Positions 5,627 to 40,153 of a stretch of DNA of 64,000 nucleotides are shown one piece after another. The stretch is from an uncultured Candidatus Saccharibacteria bacterium. Lineage in GTDB: Bacteria; Patescibacteriota; Minisyncoccia; Phycocordibacterales; UBA918. A program made the translations under genes and the position numbers. The DNA lies in NCBI GenBank assembly GCA_964638425.1, contig CAZWYM010000003.1, positions 16,289 through 80,288 on the forward strand, written 5' to 3'. The notes beneath the pieces were generated by a model. The model made no database searches, had not been told where the DNA came from, and worked only from the letters and a program-made list of their open reading frames with translations. Each line of letters starts with the position of its first letter. The stretch's first letter is position 1.

Positions 5627-5698
5627 GGTACTTGACTCGGGTGTATTATCGTGATAAAAATAAGACCACACATTTTTGAGGAGACAAACCAACATAAT

Positions 5699-6724
5699 AT
5701 GATTACATTTAAACCAAAGCAAGTAACAAAAAAGCTACTTTCTGTGCTTCCTGATAGAGCTCGGGACGTTCTCACAAAGCGGTATGGACTCGACGCAACC
5801 GCTGAGACATCTACCCTTGAATCTATTGGTCAAACATACGGGATTACCCGTGAGCGTGTCCGTCAGATTGAAAACTACGGTATTCAGTCTGTTCAGAAGT
5901 CTGAGGCATACAAGGAGTTTCAAGACGTCTTTGATGAACTTCAAACGGCACTCGATGCGCTTGGTGGTGTGCTCAATGAACATGATCTCCTCGATGAACT
6001 TGCAAAGGATTCTTCACTCCGAAATCATATTTACTTCCTCCTCGTAATCGGTGACCCATTCAAGCGAGTGAAGGAAGATAACTCATTCTCACATCGTTGG
6101 TACATCGAAAAGAAGATTTCTGATAACGTAGAAAAAGCACTCAAAAATATATTTGAATCATTACAAGAAGATGACCTCGTTTCTGAAGATGAGATTCTCG
6201 CACGTTTAAAAAGTGAACTCGGCGAACTCGAAGAGCGATACCGTGATGAAAAAATCCTAAAACGATGGCTCTCAATTTCAAAGCAAATTGATAAAAACCC
6301 ACTCGGGGAATGGGGTCATGCTCAAAGTCCAAATGTACGTGCAAAGGGAATTCGAGATTACGCATACCTCGCAGTAAAGCGACATGGTTCACCGATGCAC
6401 TTCAAGGAAGTAGCAGAGGCTATCAAGTCACTCTTCGGAAAGAAAGCGCACATTGCAACTACTCATAACGAGCTCATTAAGGATCGACGATTTGTACTCG
6501 TTGGACGAGGACTCTACGCGCTATCTGAATGGGGATACTCAGCAGGAGTAGTGAAGGATGTGCTCCGCGATATTCTTACAACACACGGTCCACTAACGCG
6601 AGACGAAATCATCGACAAGGTGCGCAAAGAACGATACGTAAAGGACAACACTATCATCGTAAACCTACAAGACACCGTACTTTTCAAAAGACTTCCAGAT
6701 GGAAACTACATGCTCGTAGAATAA
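5699..6724 (+). CDS. sigma-70 region 4-like HTH protein with C-terminal HARE-HTH domain
   Basis: N-terminal LPDRARDVLTKRYGL...TLESIGQTYGITRERVRQIE matches sigma70 region 4. The C-terminal MHFKEVAEAIKSLFGKK...LVGRGLYALSEWGY matches HARE-HTH (RpoE-delta-like). The start was placed at ATG 5699, preceded by GAGGAG and a TTGACT-17-TAAAAA promoter-like sequence. The ORF caller used GTG 5651. Confidence 0.6.
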   Translation: MITFKPKQVTKKLLSVLPDRARDVLTKRYGLDATAETSTLESIGQTYGITRERVRQIENYGIQSVQKSEAYKEFQDVFDELQTALDALGGVLNEHDLLDELAKDSSLRNHIYFLLVIGDPFKRVKEDNSFSHRWYIEKKISDNVEKALKNIFESLQEDDLVSEDEILARLKSELGELEERYRDEKILKRWLSISKQIDKNPLGEWGHAQSPNVRAKGIRDYAYLAVKRHGSPMHFKEVAEAIKSLFGKKAHIATTHNELIKDRRFVLVGRGLYALSEWGYSAGVVKDVLRDILTTHGPLTRDEIIDKVRKERYVKDNTIIVNLQDTVLFKRLPDGNYMLVE

Positions 6725-6750
6725 TTCCAACATTTAGTTTTATATAACAA

Positions 6751-6780
6751 AAGCCTCAACATTTGTTGAGGCTTTTGTTA
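6751..6780 (+). terminator. rho-independent terminator
   Basis: AAAGCCTCAAC-attt-GTTGAGGCTTTTGTT lies immediately after the stop of the 5699..6724 gene. Confidence 0.6.
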
Positions 6781-6829
6781 TTCATCACTCGAATAAAACC
6801 TAATCCAAATATGTTGTACAATATGAGGC

Positions 6830-8173
6830 ATGATTGGCTTACTAGAAGCACCCGTAGGATTCCTCGAAAAATTCGGAGCAAATGTAACCTGGCTACTTGT
6901 TGTCATTGGGCTGGGCATGGCATGGTTTGCTTTTTCACTTTTTGATTTTGAGTCAAACAAGATGTTTGGCTACATGGCAGCGACCGCACCACTTTGGTTG
7001 CCATTTCTCACGTTCTTTTTGTTTTTTAATGCGTGGATACATTATGTGCATAAGGACTACGACATTAAGCAGGGGAGAGTGACTCTCGAAATAAAGCTCC
7101 CACAAGATGTTTTTAAATCTCCTGAAGCTATGGAGCTTGTTCTCATTCAACTCCACCAAACAGCTTCACCAGACAACCATATCCAAACATACGTCGATGG
7201 AAAGAAACCTCCTACTTACGGGCTTGAACTCGTATCGAGAGGTGGAGATGTACGTTTCTATATGAATGTACCTCGAAAGAAATTTAAGAATATAGCTGAA
7301 ACACAGCTCTACGCTCAATACCCAGGAATTGAGGTAGTTGAACTCGATACTGATTACACCGCTGAAATCCCCTGGAACCCCGATAAGTTTTCATATTTCT
7401 CAATTCACTTTGGTCCTAAGAAAGCTGACGCATACCCAATAAAGACCTACCTTGATTACAACCTTCAAACCATGCCCAAGGAAGAGGAGAAGATTGATCC
7501 TATTTCAGGCATGCTCGAAATGCTCGGAAGTATTGGCCCAGACGAACACATGTGGGTTCAAATACTCATTAATGCACACCGTGAGGTTACCTTTAAGGAG
7601 GGGTCACTCACATTCCAGCATGACTGGAAGGATGCAGCGCGTGATGAAATAAAGAAGATTATCGCAGACGCAAACAAGCGTATTGGCATCGATGGTACAA
7701 AAGAAGGCCAGTCACTGAGCATGATGAGTCTTAGTGATGGTGAAAAAGATGCGATTAAGTCTATTGAACGAAGTCTGGGTAAAAATGCTTTTAATACAGC
7801 CATTCGCGGTATGTACATAGCGAAAAATGAAATGTTCATGCCTGGAGAGCGCATTGGTGCACTCGTTACTGGATGGCGCGGATTCGATGACCTAAACAGA
7901 AATTCAATCGGCGTACGTTGGCGAACGGACTTTAACTGGAACTGGTGGCAAGACCCGAGCGGAAAGCTCAAAAATCTGATGAAGCAACAAGAGCTTTACG
8001 AATATAAGATACGCGATTATACAGTGTATAGTGGCGCAGACGTATGGAAGGTTATGACTACAGAAGAACTCGCGACCATGTTCCATCTCCCAGGAAAGGT
8101 TGCAACAACTCCGTCACTCAATAGAATCCCATCAAAGCGAGCAGAACCGCCGGCAAACCTACCGACAAGCTAG
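6830..8173 (+). CDS. hypothetical membrane-anchored protein (447 aa)
   Basis: A long ORF with two N-terminal TM helices followed by a large soluble domain. No known motif was recognised. Confidence 0.4.
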   Translation: MIGLLEAPVGFLEKFGANVTWLLVVIGLGMAWFAFSLFDFESNKMFGYMAATAPLWLPFLTFFLFFNAWIHYVHKDYDIKQGRVTLEIKLPQDVFKSPEAMELVLIQLHQTASPDNHIQTYVDGKKPPTYGLELVSRGGDVRFYMNVPRKKFKNIAETQLYAQYPGIEVVELDTDYTAEIPWNPDKFSYFSIHFGPKKADAYPIKTYLDYNLQTMPKEEEKIDPISGMLEMLGSIGPDEHMWVQILINAHREVTFKEGSLTFQHDWKDAARDEIKKIIADANKRIGIDGTKEGQSLSMMSLSDGEKDAIKSIERSLGKNAFNTAIRGMYIAKNEMFMPGERIGALVTGWRGFDDLNRNSIGVRWRTDFNWNWWQDPSGKLKNLMKQQELYEYKIRDYTVYSGADVWKVMTTEELATMFHLPGKVATTPSLNRIPSKRAEPPANLPTS

Positions 8174-8177
8174 ACTT

Positions 8178-9164
8178 ATGCCAGTCAATGAGACAACCCA
8201 ACAAAACGAGCACACCGGAAAGGCACTATTTTATACGTGTGCTTTATTTGTAATTACAATTCTGATACTCCTTGCCTCAAAATACTTTCTCACATTCCTG
8301 AATACACCGACTAATAATTTTCCAATAGAGCAAAGTATCACTATCGAGGAAGGTCTTACTCAAAGCGAAATTACCGCACTCCTCGAAGAAAGTAATGTAA
8401 TTCGCTCATCACAGTATCTGTATGTTGTTCTTCTCACCCAGTTCGAAAACTCATTTGTTCAAGCAGGTACATACCGATTTGAAAGTCCACTGACCACAGA
8501 AGAAATTGCCGGAGCAATAACCTCAGGTACACATCAATCTCCACTCACAAAAATCACTCTTCCAGAAGGTTTTCAGATAAAAGATATACATCAGTATCTT
8601 CCAGAGCGATTTGCTACCACCTCATTTGCTGGCGTCGAAAAGTACGAAGGATACCTTTTCCCTGATACCTATCATATTAAAGAGACAATGAGCCCAGATG
8701 AAATTATTTCACTCTTGCGTGAAACATTTGATGAGAAAACTGCTCAGTACAAAGACGAGATTGAAACATCAGGATTTGAGCTCGATGAGGTGATTATCCT
8801 TGCTTCAATCTTGGAACGTGAAGCAAAGGATGTTGAATCAAAGCGGATAGTCTCAGGTATTCTCCAAAATAGACTTCGCATTGGGATGCCACTCCAAGTC
8901 GATGCAGCATTTGATTATGTTTTAGATAAACCAAGCTCGGAATTGACTGAGTCAGACCTTCTCATAGACTCACCCTATAACACATACACGCACAGAGGAT
9001 TACCCCCAACACCGATAGCGAACCCAGGCATAGAGTCTATAGAAGCAGTTCTCAATCCAACAGCAACCAAGAATTTGTACTACCTCACGGGTGACGATGG
9101 TACGTTCCATTACGCAAAATCATTCGACGAACACAAACTCAATAAGCAAAAATATATTCAATAG
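8178..9164 (+). CDS. mltG: endolytic murein transglycosylase MltG (YceG-like)
   Basis: A single N-terminal TM helix followed by a YceG-like domain (…LFPDTYHIKETMSPDEIISLL…ASILEREA…LQVDAAFDYVL…). The start was moved to internal ATG 8178 to avoid a 74-nt overlap with the upstream gene. Confidence 0.8.
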   Translation: MPVNETTQQNEHTGKALFYTCALFVITILILLASKYFLTFLNTPTNNFPIEQSITIEEGLTQSEITALLEESNVIRSSQYLYVVLLTQFENSFVQAGTYRFESPLTTEEIAGAITSGTHQSPLTKITLPEGFQIKDIHQYLPERFATTSFAGVEKYEGYLFPDTYHIKETMSPDEIISLLRETFDEKTAQYKDEIETSGFELDEVIILASILEREAKDVESKRIVSGILQNRLRIGMPLQVDAAFDYVLDKPSSELTESDLLIDSPYNTYTHRGLPPTPIANPGIESIEAVLNPTATKNLYYLTGDDGTFHYAKSFDEHKLNKQKYIQ

Positions 9165-9196: not shown

Positions 9197-10279
9197 ATGC
9201 AGAGTGAACTAAAACCTAAAAAAGAGACTGTGTGCGTAGGGCTTTCCGGAGGAGTTGATTCGAGTGTTTCTGCACAACGGCTCATAGACCAAGGATACAA
9301 CGTTATCGGTGTATTTATTAAGACATGGCACCCCGATTTCCTTATTTGTGACTGGGAAGCAGAGCGTCTTGATGCGATGCGTGTTGCAGCTAAACTCGGC
9401 ATACCATTTTATACGTGTGATGCTACGGACGCATACAAAAATGAAGTAGCAGACTACATGATTGAGGAGTACAAAAACGGGAGAACCCCTAACCCTGATG
9501 TTATGTGTAACCGTTTTGTGAAGTTCGGGGCATTCCTGAAGTTTGCACGAGAATTAGGGGCTGATAAAGTGGCAACGGGGCACTATGCTCAAGTTCATAA
9601 CGTAGAGGGCATATTTCGTCTTGAGCGAGGTACTGATTCGGCGAAAGACCAATCATATTTTTTGTGGACGCTTACTCAGGAGCAACTTGCACAAATATAC
9701 CTCCCCGTAGGCGACACAACGAAACAAGATATACGAACTGAAGCAAAATCGGGAGAACTTCCCACATTTGCTAAACATGATAGTCAGGGTATCTGTTTTT
9801 TGGGTCAGATTGATATCAAGGAGTTCCTGTCACATTACATCACCGTAGCAACGGGTGATGTCCTCAATGTAAATGGAGAGATTGTCGGTACACATGATGG
9901 AGCACTTTTCTATACCATAGGACAACGACACGGCTTTTTACTTAAAGCTGTCGGAACCGAAAGTGCTCCACAATATGTCGTTGCTAAGGATATTGAGAAA
10001 AATACCATTACTGTTTCTCCTCACCAAAAAGTACTCGGCAAAGCCGTGATAATTTTGTCGCAGGTTAATCTCATTGAAGGAACATTGCCAGCTACCTGCG
10101 AAGCGCAATTTAGATACCGGCAAAAGCCATTCACGGTTAACTGCAGTCAAGACAGGGAAGGGCGTGTTATGCTACACGTATTAGAAGAATCAACAGAATC
10201 ACCCTCATGCGGGCAATCATGCGTTCTCTATAATGGGAAAATATGTTTGGGAGGTGGGATTATAAATGACATTGTATGA
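9197..10279 (+). CDS. mnmA: tRNA-specific 2-thiouridylase MnmA
   Basis: A PP-loop (VGLSGGVDSSV), catalytic Cys residues and full-length MnmA similarity. Confidence 0.9.
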   Translation: MQSELKPKKETVCVGLSGGVDSSVSAQRLIDQGYNVIGVFIKTWHPDFLICDWEAERLDAMRVAAKLGIPFYTCDATDAYKNEVADYMIEEYKNGRTPNPDVMCNRFVKFGAFLKFARELGADKVATGHYAQVHNVEGIFRLERGTDSAKDQSYFLWTLTQEQLAQIYLPVGDTTKQDIRTEAKSGELPTFAKHDSQGICFLGQIDIKEFLSHYITVATGDVLNVNGEIVGTHDGALFYTIGQRHGFLLKAVGTESAPQYVVAKDIEKNTITVSPHQKVLGKAVIILSQVNLIEGTLPATCEAQFRYRQKPFTVNCSQDREGRVMLHVLEESTESPSCGQSCVLYNGKICLGGGIINDIV

Positions 10280-11103
10280 AAATTACGAAAGCTGACGGAG
10301 GAGTAGAAGAATTTAAACCGCAGAAATTAATCTCATCACTGAAAAAGGCTGGAGCAAACCCTCAAGAAATTTCAAGAATTGTTTCTTCAATTGAATCGTC
10401 TCTTTTAGACAGCATGAAGACACAGATGATCTATCAAAAAGCATTTCAAATGCTTCGAGAAAGTGACGAGCCGATTGCGGCAAAGTACTCATTACGAAGA
10501 GCGGTATTTGGTCTCGGGCCAACCGGTTTCCCCTTTGAAGATTTCCTTGGGAAAATCTTTGAGGCAGAAGGGTACCAAACAAAACGAAGACTCATTTTGA
10601 AAGGGAAGTGCGCTACTCATGAAATTGACCTCGCTGCGTATTCTCCTTCACACAGTTTTGTTGCAGAAGCGAAGTTTCATATGCATCCAGGTATCAAATC
10701 TGATTTGCAAGTTGCAATGTATTCATACGCACGGTATCTCGACCTAGAGTCAGCGCGCATTTGTAAGGAAGATGTGTGTGGCATCATTTCACTTTCTGTG
10801 ATTACGAATACTAAGTTCACCGAAGCAGCTATACAGTATGCAAAGTGTAGCGGTATCGATCTTCTCAGTTGGGATTACCCTAAGCACAACTCTCTTCATT
10901 CAAAAATTGAAAAGCTCGGTGTATACCCAATCACAACACTCGCTCGTCTTTCTACAACACAAAAACAAGTACTGCTGAGTAACGGAGTAATACTCTGTTC
11001 TGAAATTATAAAAAACCCACAAGAGCTACAAAGAATTGGATTGTCAGGAACAAAAATAGATGCTGTGCTACGTGAGGCGGTTGCGCTCTGTGGCTCAAAA
11101 TAG
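10276..11103 (+). CDS. ATP-cone domain fused to restriction-endonuclease-like (Mrr-cat, PD-(D/E)xK) domain with C-terminal HhH-like tail
   Basis: The N-terminus (MKITKADGGVEEFKPQKLISSLKKAGANPQEISRIVSSIE) is ATP-cone-like, as in NrdR/RNR. The middle region (FEDFLGKIFEAEGY…THEIDLAAY…VAEAKF) carries a D…EAK nuclease motif. The C-terminus (LSNGVI…LQRIGLSGTKIDAVL) is HhH-like. Confidence 0.55.
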   Translation: MKITKADGGVEEFKPQKLISSLKKAGANPQEISRIVSSIESSLLDSMKTQMIYQKAFQMLRESDEPIAAKYSLRRAVFGLGPTGFPFEDFLGKIFEAEGYQTKRRLILKGKCATHEIDLAAYSPSHSFVAEAKFHMHPGIKSDLQVAMYSYARYLDLESARICKEDVCGIISLSVITNTKFTEAAIQYAKCSGIDLLSWDYPKHNSLHSKIEKLGVYPITTLARLSTTQKQVLLSNGVILCSEIIKNPQELQRIGLSGTKIDAVLREAVALCGSK

Positions 11104-11165
11104 GACTTTTTGACAAATATTTTTACTGAATGTCGAATTATACGGCTTAAGTATTGAACCTATGC

Positions 11166-11190
11166 TCATGATATAATTTAAAACGTATTA
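11166..11190 (+). promoter_or_regulatory. candidate extended -10 promoter (TGaTATAAT) upstream of 11217 gene
   Basis: The sequence ctcaTGaTATAATtt lies about 30 nt upstream of the ATG. Confidence 0.35.
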
Positions 11191-11216
11191 ATAGAGATAG
11201 TATTTACGTAAGAAAT

Positions 11217-11738
11217 ATGTCAGAAGTAGAAACGCAAGAGAATCAAAAGACTGTAGTGGCATTTATCACAGGACTACTTATCGGTGGACTCCTTGTTTGG
11301 GTTTTTTCATCAACGCCTGAAGGAAAAACAAAAGAAACACCAAACGAAGAAGCAAAGACAGAGGTATCGCAAAATGATTCAAAGAATGAATCAACAAAGA
11401 CAGAAACTATATCAGCAGATGTTATTGGAGAAGGCTCAGTTGTTGTTGCTGATCAAAAAGCAGGGAAGACAATTTCACTAGGTGAGACAAAGTTCCCAAC
11501 AAAGAAAGGTTGGGTAGTTGTTCGAGACTATGCAAACAACAAGGCAGGTAACATTCTCGGTGCTGCGAGATACAGCAGTGAGGAAGGACTCGCACCAAAG
11601 ACAGTTGAACTTATGCGCGATACTGTAGCAAATAGCACATACCAAGTTGTATTTTATACAAACAATGGCGACACTGGTTTCAAACTCGGTGAAGACACTG
11701 TCATTGACGGTATTGCAACTACATTCAAGGCTAACTAA
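11217..11738 (+). CDS. hypothetical membrane-anchored protein
   Basis: A 173 aa ORF with one N-terminal TM helix, a K/E/T-rich linker and a C-terminal ~90 aa domain. No motif was recognised. Confidence 0.4.
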   Translation: MSEVETQENQKTVVAFITGLLIGGLLVWVFSSTPEGKTKETPNEEAKTEVSQNDSKNESTKTETISADVIGEGSVVVADQKAGKTISLGETKFPTKKGWVVVRDYANNKAGNILGAARYSSEEGLAPKTVELMRDTVANSTYQVVFYTNNGDTGFKLGEDTVIDGIATTFKAN

Positions 11739-11765
11739 CAAGTCTCTCGGGATTACAATCTCAGC

Positions 11766-11800
11766 AAAAACGAGCACCTTTGGGTGCTCGTTTTTGTTTT
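11766..11800 (+). terminator. rho-independent terminator
   Basis: AAAAACGAGCACC-tttg-GGTGCTCGTTTTTGTTTT follows the stop at 11738. Confidence 0.6.
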
Positions 11801-11835
11801 ACCCTGATTCTGGCGAATGGTATACTTCTACAACT

Positions 11836-12621
11836 ATGGCAACATTCCAGAAAAAGTACAATCCAAATCGAAATAGTGACTGGAATTACGGAGGCGCAAA
11901 GTGGCGACTCTCTCGTTCAAAAATTGATTTATTTATAGAGTGTCCTCGTTGCTTTTATATCGACAACAAACTCGGCACCGCACGACCTCGCGGACCAGCG
12001 TTTACACTAAACGTAGCTGTAGATGCGCTCTTTAAGAGTGAATTTGATACATATCGCAAGAAAAAAGAAGCACACCCGCTTATGAAGCAGTACCACATAG
12101 ATGCTGTTCCATTTGAACACAAAATGCTCAATACATGGCGAGAGAACTTTGAAGGAATAGAACATGTACATGCAAAAACCGGACTTACTATTTCTGGGGC
12201 TATTGATGATGTATGGATAGATACTGAGGGGAAGCTTATTGTTGTCGACTACAAAGCTACTGCTAAAGAAGGGACAATCGAAACGTTGAGTGACTCATCT
12301 TGGGAAGATCAGTACAAGCGACAAATTGGGGTCTATCAATGGCTCTTTATTCAAAACGGATTCAAGGTAAATGACGTTGGGTATTTTGTGTATGCAAACG
12401 GAGACGGGAGCTTGCCTGAGTTCAACAATACACTCACCTTCGAAACGACACTCGTCCCATGTGAAGGAGATATGGACTGGATTGAGCCAACACTCCTCAA
12501 GATCAAGGAATGCCTTGAGAGCGACACATTTCCGAAGTCTGGCGAAGCATGTGAATTTTGCCCGTATCGAGAAGCATGTGGGAAAAAGCTCCAGCAGATT
12601 CACAAAAATGGCAAAGGCTGA
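11836..12621 (+). CDS. PD-(D/E)XK nuclease with Cas4/RecB-like 4-Cys cluster
   Basis: A VVDYKAT (D-x-K) motif and QIGVYQWL (QxxxY) are present. There is one N-terminal Cys (CPRCFY) and three C-terminal Cys (CEFCPYREAC), as in Cas4-type Fe-S nucleases. The start is at ATG 11836, after the upstream terminator. The ORF caller's 11647 start lies inside the upstream gene. Confidence 0.6.
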   Translation: MATFQKKYNPNRNSDWNYGGAKWRLSRSKIDLFIECPRCFYIDNKLGTARPRGPAFTLNVAVDALFKSEFDTYRKKKEAHPLMKQYHIDAVPFEHKMLNTWRENFEGIEHVHAKTGLTISGAIDDVWIDTEGKLIVVDYKATAKEGTIETLSDSSWEDQYKRQIGVYQWLFIQNGFKVNDVGYFVYANGDGSLPEFNNTLTFETTLVPCEGDMDWIEPTLLKIKECLESDTFPKSGEACEFCPYREACGKKLQQIHKNGKG

Positions 12622-12886
12622 ACAGACATTTACTGAATGCGTTAAAGACGTTGTAAAAGCTATTCCACGTGGAAAAACAATGAGTTACAAGGAAGTTGCA
12701 ATACGCGCAGGAAATCCAGGGGCAGCACGTGCAGTTGCGCGCATTATGAGCGCTAGTTTCGATGATTCAGTACCCTGTCATCGAGTTATCTGTTCAAATG
12801 GTACTCTTGGTGGGTATAATAGAGGTGGTACAAAGTCAAAGCAGGAAATACTCCTCCGCGAGGGTGCACTCTCTAATGTAATATGA
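12608..12886 (+). CDS. MGMT/Ogt-family DNA-binding domain protein (mini-Ogt, retains PCHR Cys)
   Basis: The 92 aa sequence …MSYKEVAIRAGNPGAARAVARIM…VPCHRVICSNGTLGGY… matches the C-terminal domain of O6-alkylguanine-DNA alkyltransferase with the active-site PCHRV motif. The start at ATG 12608 overlaps the upstream gene end. Confidence 0.65.
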   Translation: MAKAEQTFTECVKDVVKAIPRGKTMSYKEVAIRAGNPGAARAVARIMSASFDDSVPCHRVICSNGTLGGYNRGGTKSKQEILLREGALSNVI

Positions 12887-13233
12887 ATTTCCAAAACGAC
12901 ATACAAACAATTGAAAGAAGGATCTCAGAACTACAACGAAAAGTCGATAGCTTTGAACGTGACGAACAACAACTGAAACCGCGTCTTGAAAAAGCTAAGA
13001 AGCTCGTCACTGATGGACAGAATGAACTTGAACGATTACAGGTCTCAACGAGAAAGATTCAAGAAACAATCCAACAGTCGCAACGTGATGTTCGAAGCAT
13101 TACAGACGAGCAACTCAGAATCCTCAACGAGAAAACACGTATAGTTACGCAAATTGCTTCTCAAAATAAAGAAATGGAACGTGTCCAGAGAATGAGTGAT
13201 GAAGAAGTTCGAAGGAACGCCCTTAAAAAGTAG
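12883..13233 (+). CDS. hypothetical coiled-coil protein
   Basis: A 116 aa ORF rich in E/K/Q/R with heptad-like periodicity and no known motif. Confidence 0.35.
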   Translation: MNFQNDIQTIERRISELQRKVDSFERDEQQLKPRLEKAKKLVTDGQNELERLQVSTRKIQETIQQSQRDVRSITDEQLRILNEKTRIVTQIASQNKEMERVQRMSDEEVRRNALKK

Positions 13234-13236
13234 ACC

Positions 13237-13833
13237 ATGGCATACTCATACGCAATCGAACAAGCAATACGCGCCGCATCAGTCCTTCATAAGGATCAGG
13301 TTCGTAAGGGGCAAGTTCCTTATCCGTATATTACCCACCTCTATGCGGTTGCTATGATTGTGTCTGACTACACGAATGACGAAGATACTATCGTTTCTGC
13401 TCTTCTTCATGACACTCTTGAAGATACTGACTACACAGAAGCTGAAATCGAAGATGATTTCGGAGGGAAAGTTCGAGAAATTGTTTCTTCTATAAGCGTA
13501 CCCCCACTCAAGAGCAACGATAAGGCTGGAATAACAGAACAAAAGAAGCAATACCTCAAACAGCTAAAGAGCGCCAGTGAAAATGCACTCATTGTTGTTG
13601 CGGGTGACAAAATTCACAATATGCGTTCAATTGTTGAGGAGTACTACGATAACCACTCTGGTTTTATTGCAGAATTTGGAAGCCAACTTGAACCTCGATT
13701 ACAGATGTACCAAGAGATAAGCAATGCACTTAATCGCAATTTGAAAAATGCTATACTAGCCGAGTTCAATAGTGTTTTTACTGAATATAAGAATTTCATC
13801 CACAATGTCGAAAAGAAGCGCAACGAATATTGA
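13237..13833 (+). CDS. HD-domain hydrolase (RelA/SpoT-type HD; small alarmone hydrolase-like)
   Basis: The sequence HLYAVAMIV…ALLHDTLEDT matches the RelA/SpoT hydrolase HD motif. No synthetase domain is present. Confidence 0.6.
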   Translation: MAYSYAIEQAIRAASVLHKDQVRKGQVPYPYITHLYAVAMIVSDYTNDEDTIVSALLHDTLEDTDYTEAEIEDDFGGKVREIVSSISVPPLKSNDKAGITEQKKQYLKQLKSASENALIVVAGDKIHNMRSIVEEYYDNHSGFIAEFGSQLEPRLQMYQEISNALNRNLKNAILAEFNSVFTEYKNFIHNVEKKRNEY

Positions 13834-35911: not shown

Positions 35912-36724
35912 CTAACTCCACATTGATAATGAATCGTTTTTGAGTGTCAAAAACGAATTAAGTGTTAGTCTGGTCTCACCAGGGCTGATTTGTTCAACCT
36001 GATGGAAATTTCGACTGCGGAAAATAATTAAATCGCCAGTCTCAGGAAAAATCTTTGTAGGTCTTTCATTTTGTAGGAATGATGGATTAAATCCATTTGG
36101 ACCTTTTTCAAAAATATCTTCATTATAAATATTATCCTCAGGTATCCAAGGGTGATTATAGATAATTAATTCTCCCCCTACACTTGGCATCTGTAGATAC
36201 AGAACGATAGCAAATTGTTCTTCTGATGCAGATACTTCCCACCCAGGGAGTTGGCTTGGTGCGTAGTCAAAATGTAATGTACTTTTTGCCCCCATTGCTC
36301 GGACAAGACCGGAAAAATAAACCGCATTATGCATGCTAGGTTCGTGCGCTAGAGATACAACATAGTCTTTTGAAAACAACTTGATTATTTTCTGAATAGG
36401 TTCTGATACACCAGAAAACATTTCGTCCTTGACTCGGACACATTCTGGAACAAGCTTGAAATAAAGGTCCTTTCCATTTATCTTGGAGTGGTATTCTGTT
36501 GCACTTATTCCAATCCTCCCTTGTCTATACTCAGCATCTTTATACCATGATATGTCATGCTCGTTGATGTTTTTTACGATGATATCTAGTTCATTTTGAT
36601 CAAAAAAATTCGAGATCTTAATTGCTGCAATATTGTTTGTAGCTAATAAAGGTAAGAGCACCTTTGCTTCCAGATCCCTATCAGCTTCTACTTTCTTTAT
36701 TTCCCAGTCTTTTGCATATTCCAT
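35912..36724 (-). CDS. Fe(II)/2-oxoglutarate-dependent oxygenase-like protein
   Basis: An HxD (LHFDYAP)…H (NFHQVEQI)…RxT (RLTLNSF) arrangement typical of the 2OG-oxygenase facial triad plus 2OG-binding Arg. The size fits the PhyH/hydroxylase class. Confidence 0.5.
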   Translation of the reverse strand: MEYAKDWEIKKVEADRDLEAKVLLPLLATNNIAAIKISNFFDQNELDIIVKNINEHDISWYKDAEYRQGRIGISATEYHSKINGKDLYFKLVPECVRVKDEMFSGVSEPIQKIIKLFSKDYVVSLAHEPSMHNAVYFSGLVRAMGAKSTLHFDYAPSQLPGWEVSASEEQFAIVLYLQMPSVGGELIIYNHPWIPEDNIYNEDIFEKGPNGFNPSFLQNERPTKIFPETGDLIIFRSRNFHQVEQISPGETRLTLNSFLTLKNDSLSMWS

Positions 36725-39031: not shown

Positions 39032-40153
39032 ATGATTAGTTCTTTGAAAGAAAGTTTCCTTGATTATCATCAGGCACGAGGGTTTTGTATATATGAGTCC
39101 TTTCCTTTGGTAATTGATGACCCTACAATCCTATTCACAAATGCTACAATAACACCATTTAAGTCCATGTTCATGGGAGAGGGGGAGAGAATAAATTATG
39201 CTCTTGTTCAGAAATGTCTACGTTTAGGAGGGACAGGGGGGAATCTTGAAACACCTCGTTCAAACATGAACTACACTTCCTTATTCGATATGCTCGGAAG
39301 CGGACTATTTGATGTTAATCAAGACTCTGCAGTAACTTACTTCGTTGAAGTACTCATCGAGCTTGGTCTCCAGAAAAAAAATCTCGTGTTTAGCACCACT
39401 TATAATTCTGGTTTTGACTTGGCTTTGGAACGAGCAGGAATAAGTGCGAGTCAAATCAGACTCTTCAACGATCCAAAAGAGATCCAGCACGAATGGAGTT
39501 TTGGGGAAGGAGATTTGCATGGTTGTGGAGTGGTGGCTTGGTGTGTTCCTGAAAGCTATCTAGGACACACTTTCGACAGTATCCCACAAGAACTTTTTCA
39601 GTATGTTCAAATAGGAAGGATAGTCCATATCGATGGTGTTGCACGAGTTTCAACTGTAGAGTTGTTCCCATACTCAGCATACGATATGGGAATCGGGTTG
39701 AATAGGGTTGAGGCAGCTCTCAATGGGAACTGTGAAATGTCTATGTATCCATGGAGAATGCTTTCGAAACAACTTCAATCTTCAATACATGGGCTTTATA
39801 AAACCGATGCCCATTACATGGCGAATCTCTATCGTGTAGCTGAGGATCTGATTGGTGAAGGGCTTCTTCCTGGGAAGAAGAAGCATGCTTATGCTCTTCG
39901 GAAAGTAGTACGATTACTTATCGAGGAGATTTGGCTAAAGTCAAAGGCATTGGTAGATATTTACACAGTGTTGCGGGAGTCGATTAACACATCCGCTTAT
40001 CGAGACTTGCTCATCCAGGTTCTTTCTCAGGAAGAAGTAGCTTTACGTGGGGTACTTTCTGTTGCCATACAAAAGCAGAAGAAGTACCCCGGCATGAATC
40101 CTGAAGAACTGCGTTCAACGTTCGGAATTCGTCCGAGCCTTCTCAAGCTTTAA
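39032..40153 (+). CDS. stand-alone alanyl-tRNA-synthetase catalytic-domain paralog (class II aaRS-like amino-acid activating enzyme)
   Basis: The 373 aa sequence ESFLDYHQARGFCIYESFPLVIDDPTILFTNATITPFKSMFMGE…QKCLRLGGTGGNLET…YTSLFDMLGSGLFD aligns with AlaRS motifs FF..GH..V.SSLVP.NDPTLLFTNAGM..FK…QRCVRAGGKHNDLE…HHTFFEMLGNFSFG. It has no tRNA-recognition, editing or C-Ala domains. The bona fide alaS is elsewhere in the window. Confidence 0.7.
   Translation: MISSLKESFLDYHQARGFCIYESFPLVIDDPTILFTNATITPFKSMFMGEGERINYALVQKCLRLGGTGGNLETPRSNMNYTSLFDMLGSGLFDVNQDSAVTYFVEVLIELGLQKKNLVFSTTYNSGFDLALERAGISASQIRLFNDPKEIQHEWSFGEGDLHGCGVVAWCVPESYLGHTFDSIPQELFQYVQIGRIVHIDGVARVSTVELFPYSAYDMGIGLNRVEAALNGNCEMSMYPWRMLSKQLQSSIHGLYKTDAHYMANLYRVAEDLIGEGLLPGKKKHAYALRKVVRLLIEEIWLKSKALVDIYTVLRESINTSAYRDLLIQVLSQEEVALRGVLSVAIQKQKKYPGMNPEELRSTFGIRPSLLKL

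Follow-up and report, generated by a model that had tools for sequence, protein, structure and literature searches.

An ATP-cone fused to an AF1548-type PD-(D/E)xK nuclease, encoded in a conserved housekeeping gene block of Patescibacteria

Background

ATP-cones have been described in ribonucleotide reductases (RNRs; NrdA, NrdB and NrdD) and in the regulator NrdR, where they are joined to the reductase or to a zinc ribbon, respectively, and in every RNR or NrdR cone studied to our knowledge the bound adenine nucleotide sets the oligomeric or conformational state. AF1548 of Archaeoglobus fulgidus, a structural-genomics protein solved in 2004 (PDB 1Y88), has no ATP-cone and was predicted to be a restriction-type nuclease with the catalytic residues D38, E51 and K53 (PMC1821046). 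The gene considered here combines both types of domain. It is located at positions 10276..11103 on the forward strand of a stretch of 64,000 nucleotides from an uncultured Candidatus Saccharibacteria bacterium (contig CAZWYM010000003.1, assembly GCA_964638425.1), the whole of which is referred to as the window in the following, and it codes for a protein of 275 amino acids (aa) consisting of an ATP-cone, an AF1548/Mrr-type PD-(D/E)xK nuclease core and an AF1548-like C-terminal helical domain. An earlier note on the window had grouped this fusion gene with genes for a Cas4-like nuclease and a short Ogt homologue into a possible defence or DNA-repair module. As outlined below, the fusion gene is a vertically inherited core gene in Patescibacteria, and a nuclease gated by adenine nucleotides seems to us the somewhat likelier description of its product.

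Each part of the fusion protein has described counterparts. The nuclease part has been known since the structure of AF1548, with which it shares a homologous core, the C-terminal helical domain and the same predicted D...ExK residues. With the cones of NrdR and the RNRs the N-terminal domain shares the fold and, as judged from profile alignment, the Lys/Glu/Lys/Thr positions, though not R10 of NrdA; its "K-S/A" start is like that of NrdR in particular, but it is joined to a nuclease. The type IV, modification-dependent enzymes Mrr and MspJI/AspBHI have in common with the fusion protein the PD-(D/E)xK core with its FE...D...ExK motif; the fusion protein, however, contains no modification-reading domain, and its gene belongs to the syntenic core of the genome and does not behave as a mobile defence gene. 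Finally, the CARF-nucleases Can2, Card1 (VC1899 fold) and Cdn1 are similar in nuclease fold and in the logic of coupling a small-nucleotide sensor to a PD-(D/E)xK nuclease. Here the sensor is an ATP-cone, and there is no context of clustered regularly interspaced short palindromic repeats (CRISPR) or of cyclic oligonucleotide-based antiphage signalling (CBASS); the likeness thus lies in a possible way of working and not in family membership.

Domains, fold and conserved residues of the fusion protein

The ATP-cone that had been read from the translation in the earlier note is confirmed by Pfam, where PF03477 matches residues 1-75 (10276..10500, +) with 37.2 bits against a cut-off of 25.8 and orthologues score 29.9-32.6 bits. 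Likewise, the C-terminal all-helical domain, residues 217-270 (10924..11085, +), is recognised by AF1548-like_C (PF22357) with 25.0 bits against a cut-off of 23.9. For the nuclease core (10525..10890, +), which is supported by the alignment to 1Y88 and by the invariant positions described below, Mrr_cat (PF04471) itself stays slightly short of its cut-off (20.7 against 21 bits), and it reaches 23.5 and 27.2 bits in two Bacteroidota orthologues. None of the NCBIfam models matches the fusion protein. The PD-(D/E)xK nuclease domain proposed earlier is upheld by a PDB sequence search, in which 1Y88 aligns to residues 90-273 at E=2e-29, and by the fold. In this alignment D38, E51 and K53 of AF1548 correspond to D118 (10627-10629), E131 (10666-10668) and K133 (10672-10674), the predicted catalytic residues. 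A family signature, LGPTGFPFE, occupies residues 80-88 (10513..10539, +) and ends in the invariant E88.

An AlphaFold2 model built from 39 diverse homologues (32-56% identity; alignment A1) has a predicted local distance difference test score (pLDDT) of 95.9 and a predicted template modelling score (pTM) of 0.91. When searched with Foldseek, its C-terminal two thirds superpose on 1Y88 (E=1.9e-15, TM 0.80), and its N-terminal part, with the beta-hairpin plus four-helix fold of a cone, fits the ATP-cones of NrdR, Prevotella copri NrdD, NrdA and NrdB to within 1.6-1.9 Å over about 80 residues, the root-mean-square deviation being 1.7-1.8 Å over 79 residues for NrdR (9fxk, 9gex) and 1.9 Å over 81 residues for P. 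copri NrdD (8p28). The cone is supported by Pfam, A1, a profile alignment with hhalign to NrdR and NrdA, and Foldseek, and the C-terminal domain by PF22357, the model and the C-terminus of 1Y88. In the model, the cone packs against the nuclease, E88 sits at the N-terminus of the first helix of the nuclease (H86-97), and the C-terminal tail forms helices over residues 227-273. This agrees with the helical tail described in the earlier note; its helix-hairpin-helix (HhH)-like nature, and with it a non-specific binding of nucleic acid, is presumed.

Among the 39 members of A1, K5 and G8 of the cone are invariant, and at K17, S21, G26 and T49 conservation reaches 90% or more. Also invariant are G81, G84, F87 and E88 of the linker (LGPSGFPFE in the family), and further along G110, E116 and D118, E131 and K133, R153 and D156, as well as W199, P202 and P218. 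The full E88-D118-E131-K133 set is thus found in all 39 members, and 165 of 168 loci retain the motifs. By profile comparison, K5, E11, K17 and T49 of the cone appear to align with K9, E15, K21 and T55 of Escherichia coli NrdA, and A6 with R10 of NrdA and S54 of E. coli NrdR. We take K9, R10, E15, K21 and T55 of NrdA to be positions that contact the nucleotide in the R1 structures. With respect to the basic residues that the earlier note had singled out for inspection, K5 and K17 are conserved, whereas the position of R10 is not kept as such. Judged from these conserved positions, both halves of the fusion protein look functional.

In sequence searches of the PDB, the top matches of the cone profile, drawn by the helix KLISSLKKAGANPQEISRIVSSIESSL (residues 17-50; 10324-10425; SLKRAGAS...), are de novo designed helical-repeat proteins; these were rejected as compositional artefacts, the true NrdD and NrdR cone matches ranking lower at E of about 1e-3.

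A large family of fixed architecture

The fusion protein belongs to a large and old family. At 90% identity, a word-index search returned 3,995 clusters; all of the top 120 are 273-297 aa long and 68-100% identical. An exhaustive HMMER search returned 1,120 clusters (50% identity) at E<=1e-3, including 414 at E<=1e-30; among the best 150 of the 1,120 clusters, nearly all members are 265-295 aa long and the query is covered from end to end. Only few members are without a cone, such as P0147 (221 aa) and AF1548 itself. In the databases, members are named "ATP cone domain-containing protein", "restriction endonuclease" or "hypothetical protein", and the closest homologues are assigned to Candidatus Kaiserbacteria or Paceibacterota, which places the window on a Patescibacteria chromosome of Paceibacteria/Kaiserbacteria-like type.

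For the search of genomic loci a subset of 12 sequences was used because alignment A1 is too diverse. The signature peptide alone is found in at least 599 species-level genome loci and in at least 600 metagenome loci. The best 80 of the former belong to Patescibacteria (Kaiser-, Nomura-, Wolfe- and Taylorbacteria, Paceibacteria) and Bacteroidota, the latter represented by Tenacibaculum, Gaetbulibacter, Aequorivita, Lutibacter and Ferruginibacter. The gene in the window is an ordinary orthologue within a family of fixed architecture that is already present in the databases.

A conserved gene block in Patescibacteria

The region around the fusion gene is compact, and all of its genes are co-directional. 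The listed block begins with a protein containing sigma70 region 4 and a HARE-HTH domain (5651-6724), followed by a DUF8128-type protein (6830-8173), YceG/MltG (8100-9164) and the tRNA 2-thiouridylase MnmA (9197..10279, +), whose stop codon is overlapped by the ATG of the fusion gene (ATGA); the two are probably co-transcribed. Downstream of the fusion gene come a membrane-anchored protein of 173 aa with a weak match to DUF7282 (11217..11738, +), a solo Cas4/AddB/EXO5-type PD-(D/E)xK nuclease of 261 aa (11836..12621, +) and a single-domain Ogt homologue of 92 aa, hereafter mini-Ogt (12608..12886, +), which starts 14 nucleotides (nt) inside the 3' end of the Cas4-like gene; these two are probably co-translated with each other. 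Then follow a small HD_4 protein that resembles the hydrolase domain of RelA/SpoT (13237..13833, +) and is a member of the same syntenic block, two M16 peptidases and alanyl-tRNA synthetase (AlaRS). The housekeeping setting noticed earlier, with YceG, MnmA, the M16 peptidases and AlaRS as flanking genes, is thus evident, and the Cas4-like gene is indeed the second gene downstream, the gene for the membrane-anchored protein, which is unrelated to DNA, standing in between.

Synteny was assessed by tblastn of the neighbours in the window against 65 Patescibacteria loci, where the number of eligible loci differs between genes. The fusion gene is found at the same position in all 65 species loci, and the order of the block (sigma/HARE, DUF8128, YceG, MnmA, fusion gene, Cas4-like, mini-Ogt, HD, AlaRS) as well as the strand are retained as a whole down to an identity of the fusion protein of about 41%. 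MnmA is the steadiest neighbour with 59 of 60 eligible loci, followed by YceG (54/56), sigma/HARE (43/45), DUF8128 (47/50), Cas4-like (51/57), AlaRS (38/48), mini-Ogt (40/57) and HD_4 (34/57); the membrane-anchored protein is encoded in 36 of 60 syntenic loci. Median identities amount to 45% for the fusion protein, 61% for Cas4-like, 59% for mini-Ogt, 53% for MnmA, 41% for YceG and 59% for AlaRS.

The fusion gene, the Cas4-like gene and the mini-Ogt gene are all present in 40 of the 57 eligible loci. The grouping, which the earlier note had regarded as uncommon and as open to refutation if the genes never co-occurred elsewhere, is therefore the rule in this lineage. Since the same loci keep MnmA, YceG, DUF8128, sigma/HARE and AlaRS in order, however, this co-occurrence amounts to lineage-wide core-gene synteny, and the three genes co-occur no more tightly than the housekeeping genes do. 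In addition, six loci (L051, L058-L060, L066 and L077) have MnmA and the fusion gene without the Cas4-like gene, and mini-Ogt is missing from at least 10 loci. In Patescibacteria the fusion gene is accordingly a vertically inherited core gene of a long housekeeping block, and the Cas4-like and mini-Ogt genes are separate housekeeping genes, with predicted roles in DNA-end processing and alkylation repair, which probably do not form one system with the ATP-cone nuclease.

With regard to the upstream part of the block, the sigma/HARE and DUF8128 proteins (5651-8173) are constant members of it, and the former has the highest conservation of any block gene with a median identity of 67%.

The Cas4-like nuclease and mini-Ogt

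Comparison with the iron-sulfur PD-(D/E)xK exonucleases solo Cas4, AddB, AdnAB and EXO5 (PMC5704561) places the Cas4-like protein among nucleases with a PDDEXK_1 domain, DxK and QxxxY motifs, flanking cysteines and a common fold. PDDEXK_1 scores 53.3 bits against a cut-off of 22, the residues D124/D125, D138-Y-K140 and Q159/Y160/Y167 are all invariant, with DYK kept in 57 of 57 relatives, and the model (pLDDT 85) matches AdnAB, Cas4-Cas1 complexes, Pcal_0546, SSO0001, EXO5 and AddB in Foldseek searches (E=1e-5 to 1e-4), while sequence searches of the PDB with single sequence and profile returned nothing real. Homologues fall into more than 8,000 clusters, the close ones being 258-287 aa long, 70-100% identical and named "PD-(D/E)XK nuclease family protein" or "Cas4 (RecB family)". 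Against the models for Cas4 proper the protein remains below threshold, with 37.3 bits for the NCBIfam equivalog TIGR00372 (cut-off 65) and only 35-40 bits for those of PADLOC. As had been noticed before, no CRISPR-like repeat array and no other cas genes are found in the window, and cas1 or cas2 are next to the gene neither in the window nor in relatives, the neighbours being the membrane protein, Ogt and the HD protein. Solo Cas4 homologues outside CRISPR loci are common (PMC5704561).

The four-cysteine cluster ascribed to this protein in the earlier note stands for the window protein itself but not for its family. The protein has cysteines at positions 36, 39, 239, 242 and 248, and thus the canonical 1+3 pattern (C...CxxCx5C), composed of C36 or C39 plus C239, C242 and C248. 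Of 57 relatives, 56 have the N-terminal CxxC, and a C-terminal CxxC is likewise conserved in the Cas4-like family of the candidate phyla radiation (CPR; loci L001-L083), but the third C-terminal cysteine occurs in only 12 of 57 relatives. The argument that a four-cysteine cluster proves Cas4 was therefore rejected. In the CPR family the conserved cysteines suggest a rearranged 2+2 (CxxC...CxxC) metal or cluster site, by which, together with its score below the equivalog cut-off, it differs from the solo-Cas4/AddB/AdnAB/EXO5 group.

The description of mini-Ogt as an Ogt DNA-binding domain of 92 aa with an intact PCHRV motif was accurate: DNA_binding_1 (PF01035) scores 89.3 bits and TIGR00589 71.7 bits against a cut-off of 46.4, full-length alkyltransferase equivalog models remain far below their cut-offs, and PCHRV is intact in each of the 45 relatives, orthologues being 90 aa long. 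The protein aligns to residues 92-173 of human MGMT, including the tyrosine, the "AARAV" arginine (arginine finger), PCHRV and the C-terminal glutamate. It is thus like Ogt/MGMT in its C-terminal domain but is without the N-terminal MGMT domain. Alkyltransferase-like (ATL) proteins are of similar size; mini-Ogt differs from them in keeping the acceptor cysteine in all 45 relatives, and alkyltransferase activity is predicted.

Gene neighbourhoods outside CPR

In Bacteroidota none of the window neighbours were found by tblastn, and neither Cas4-like nor Ogt neighbours occur in the Bacteroidota, Acidobacteriota or Micrarchaeota members. Among the Bacteroidota genome loci with enough downstream sequence, a gene for a beta-CASP/RMMBL metallo-hydrolase follows within 35 nt of the fusion gene in 8 of 10. 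This protein of about 460 aa scores 115 bits for Beta-Casp and 62 bits for RMMBL, and its best NCBIfam similarities are to aCPSF1 and Cas14-type RNases, both below cut-offs. The pair is flanked by tandem Usp genes and Hsp20. Examples of this operon are found in L054 (7986-10209), L072, L073, L076, L078, L048 and L070, and in L090-L110; in Aequorivita antarctica (L075), two copies of the fusion gene (7986-8828, + and 10783-11631, -) lie on either side of one beta-CASP gene.

A metagenome scan was seeded with a non-CPR member of the family, and its counts refer to the matches listed. Where these extend 1.5 kb or more beyond the fusion gene, 33 of 55 have beta-CASP on the downstream side; on the upstream side, Usp is found in 25 of 47. 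Of the 35 loci that reach at least 4.5 kb downstream, 8 continue with a phosphorylase-like gene and a paralogue of the ribose-phosphate diphosphokinase Prs (PRK07199). The former is of the archaeal thymidine/AMP-phosphorylase-like type (TIGR02645, 579-606 bits; AMP_phos, 495-499 bits, cut-off 535). Downstream of the fusion gene, the phosphorylase-Prs pair is likewise present in Aridibacter (Acidobacteriota) and in L140, a locus that lacks beta-CASP; altogether it is found there in three independent 60%-identity lineages, Aridibacter included. Many islands are completed by genes for phosphofructokinase (PFK), a D-lactate-dehydrogenase (LDH)-type enzyme and P-type ATPases.

Low-oxygen (lxa) and dormancy (DosR-type) loci have been described (PMC3721108), and the set of Usp, Hsp20, PFK, LDH and P-type ATPase genes resembles them by gene content only; for a link between low-oxygen loci and thymidine phosphorylase nothing was found in the literature. 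In the Micrarchaeota member, the fusion gene lies 2.3 kb from a RuBisCO large-subunit gene and near HD_3/HD genes; RuBisCO of form III, to which this copy may or may not belong, works in AMP salvage (bioRxiv 10.64898/2026.05.13.725050). Outside CPR, the surroundings of the fusion gene speak for a place in nucleotide and stress metabolism.

Metal-handling genes adjoin the fusion gene in L088, L113, L114/L157, L142 and L086 (P-type ATPases, a CDF transporter, CusB, DUF411), its neighbours in Aridibacter include a multicopper oxidase with MerR, and in L121 a LexA-like gene is located directly downstream.

A putative nucleotide-gated nuclease and alternative explanations

Because the presumed nucleotide-contact residues of the cone, apart from the position of R10 of NrdA, and the E-D-ExK residues of the nuclease are invariant or nearly so in the 39 members, it is reasonable to suppose, on the strength of sequence conservation, that the fused ATP-cone makes this an adenine-nucleotide-gated nuclease. 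Like the cones of NrdR and RNR, this cone would bind an adenine nucleotide (ATP/dATP), binding would alter the oligomeric state or the packing of the domains and so switch a metal-dependent, sequence-non-specific nuclease on or off, and cleavage would thereby be coupled to the nucleotide or energy status of the cell. Instead of serving anti-phage defence, such an enzyme might take part in the turnover of nucleic acids, in nucleotide salvage or in degradation under stress. The reading of the fusion protein as a core, adenine-nucleotide-gated nuclease with one of these roles, to which the Cas4-like and mini-Ogt genes are merely syntenic, is the one we favour, and we regard it as somewhat more probable than its opposite.

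A more far-reaching version is tentative, and we would rather doubt it than rely on it. Here the whole ATP-cone/AF1548 family would be a class of nucleases gated by energy charge or (d)ATP that open nucleic-acid catabolism when adenine nucleotides are low, being a core, salvage-feeding enzyme in CPR/DPANN-type cells and acting in Bacteroidota and Acidobacteriota together with the beta-CASP RNase, the AMP-phosphorylase-like enzyme and the Prs paralogue of its operon in Usp/Hsp20 dormancy-type islands.

Several observations weigh against a nucleotide-gated enzyme of nucleic-acid turnover. The position of R10 of NrdA is Ala or Ser in the cone family, apparently as in E. coli NrdR with its Ser, and the nuclease core also resembles MspJI, AspBHI, Can2, Cdn1 and VC1899 (Foldseek E of about 1e-3). 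The CPR neighbours MnmA, Cas4-like and Ogt say little about the function of the fusion protein, and it is Bacteroidota, Acidobacteriota and one archaeon, not the CPR locus, that provide the salvage and stress context. Among the metagenome loci, moreover, many are interrelated, and at 60% identity beta-CASP adjacency is reduced to 7 of 47 lineages and that of the phosphorylase to 3 of 42, while other non-CPR loci adjoin metal-efflux genes, P-type ATPases, a CDF transporter, a LexA-like gene or a PAS histidine kinase. Literature searches on the ATP-cone/nuclease fusion and on AF1548 found no study of the fusion.

Of the two functions suggested in the earlier note, the three-gene DNA-repair module would have the ATP-cone nuclease incise, the Cas4-like exonuclease resect and mini-Ogt recognise or repair alkylated bases, all acting together. 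In its favour, 40 of 57 Patescibacteria loci have all three genes with order and strand unchanged, the Cas4-like and mini-Ogt genes share 14 nt, PCHRV and the nuclease motifs are conserved, and in one metagenome locus a LexA-like gene comes right after the fusion gene. Yet this co-occurrence is indistinguishable from the synteny of a whole block that includes MnmA, YceG and AlaRS, the fusion gene is retained in the six loci without the Cas4-like gene and in the ten or more without mini-Ogt, neither neighbour accompanies it in Bacteroidota, Acidobacteriota or Micrarchaeota, and in the window an unrelated membrane-protein gene with a promoter-like extended -10 separates it from the Cas4-like gene, which together make a joint repair module unlikely. 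Even less can be said for a role in defence, as a type IV-restriction-like or abortive-infection nuclease that is triggered by phage-perturbed ATP/dNTP (deoxynucleoside triphosphate) pools and has the Cas4-like and Ogt proteins as accessories. Such a role would fit the Mrr-like core with its structural resemblance to MspJI, AspBHI, Can2 and Cdn1, the existence of ligand-gated PD-(D/E)xK effectors in CRISPR ancillary systems and the accessory-looking stress and metal islands in which the Bacteroidota gene resides. However, the fixed chromosomal position in a housekeeping block in 65 of 65 Patescibacteria species loci and a sequence conservation on a par with that of the housekeeping neighbours are the opposite of the usual behaviour of defence genes. 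In addition, PADLOC assigned zero families to the fusion protein at E<=0.01 (six proteins were scanned, with only generic, sub-threshold Cas4 and coiled-coil matches), no relative of it was found among the 2.9 million viral contigs of IMG/VR, its extra domains are confined to the ATP-cone and the AF1548-like tail with none that reads modifications, no methyltransferase, Abi or other defence gene is adjacent, and the Cas4-like protein stays under the cas4 cut-off in a window without a CRISPR array. A defence function is therefore very improbable.

Apart from these, the fusion protein might be a nucleotide-sensing, DNA-binding regulator in the manner of NrdR, whose nuclease fold and HhH element bind DNA without cutting it. 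NrdR is likewise an ATP-cone joined to a DNA-binding module, and it is with NrdR-type cones that the cone of this family aligns best; but the invariance of E88, D118, E131 and K133 in the 39 members, and that of the motifs in all but three of 168 loci, would be unexpected for a purely DNA-binding domain, and we give this explanation hardly any credence.

Transcription signals and other features of the window

An extended -10 (TGATATAAT) is located upstream of the membrane-protein gene at 11160-11180, and a TG-extended -10-like site (TATACT) just before the Cas4-like gene at 11798-11826. Both were read by eye, and in a promoter and terminator scan sites were no more numerous than in shuffled sequence; as evidence of separate transcription units inside the "cluster" they are only suggestive. 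An Rfam scan of the window gave zero matches, and a tandem-repeat scan nothing beyond one trivial 2-copy repeat.

Between mini-Ogt and the HD_4 protein, a coiled-coil open reading frame (ORF) of 116 aa (12883-13233) has a detectable homologue in 0 of 57 syntenic loci, and in the syntenic locus L001 its slot is filled by a non-homologous small ORF. Either the coiled-coil ORF is a small gene that evolves fast, or it does not represent a gene.

At some distance from the block, the segment 32300-44000 has a guanine plus cytosine (GC) content of 0.37-0.40, compared to 0.42-0.48 elsewhere in the window, and carries genes on both strands. These code for a histidine kinase, a class IV aminotransferase, a GFO/IDH/MocA oxidoreductase, a peptidase S51, a GCS2 carboxylate-amine ligase, an AstE/AspA-like protein, a WelO5-like 2-oxoglutarate (2OG)-Fe(II) oxygenase/halogenase (35912-36724, minus strand) and a second AlaRS paralogue consisting of the catalytic core only (39032-40153). 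The segment resembles a small biosynthetic island that has been acquired, an unusual feature in a CPR genome.

Implications

With regard to the reading of such genomes, the locus shows that co-directional "clusters" in CPR genomes often reflect deep synteny only, which calls for caution before they are taken as functional modules. The locus itself is unexceptional, but the family, which is conserved in Patescibacteria like genes for tRNA modification and for the cell wall, merits biochemical study. Should the cone indeed gate the nuclease, the family would provide the first example of an ATP-cone that controls nucleic-acid degradation rather than the supply of dNTPs, and the role of ATP-cones would extend from the control of dNTP synthesis to that of nucleic-acid breakdown. 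It would then also offer a handle on the balance of nucleotide pools in ultra-small, salvage-dependent cells.

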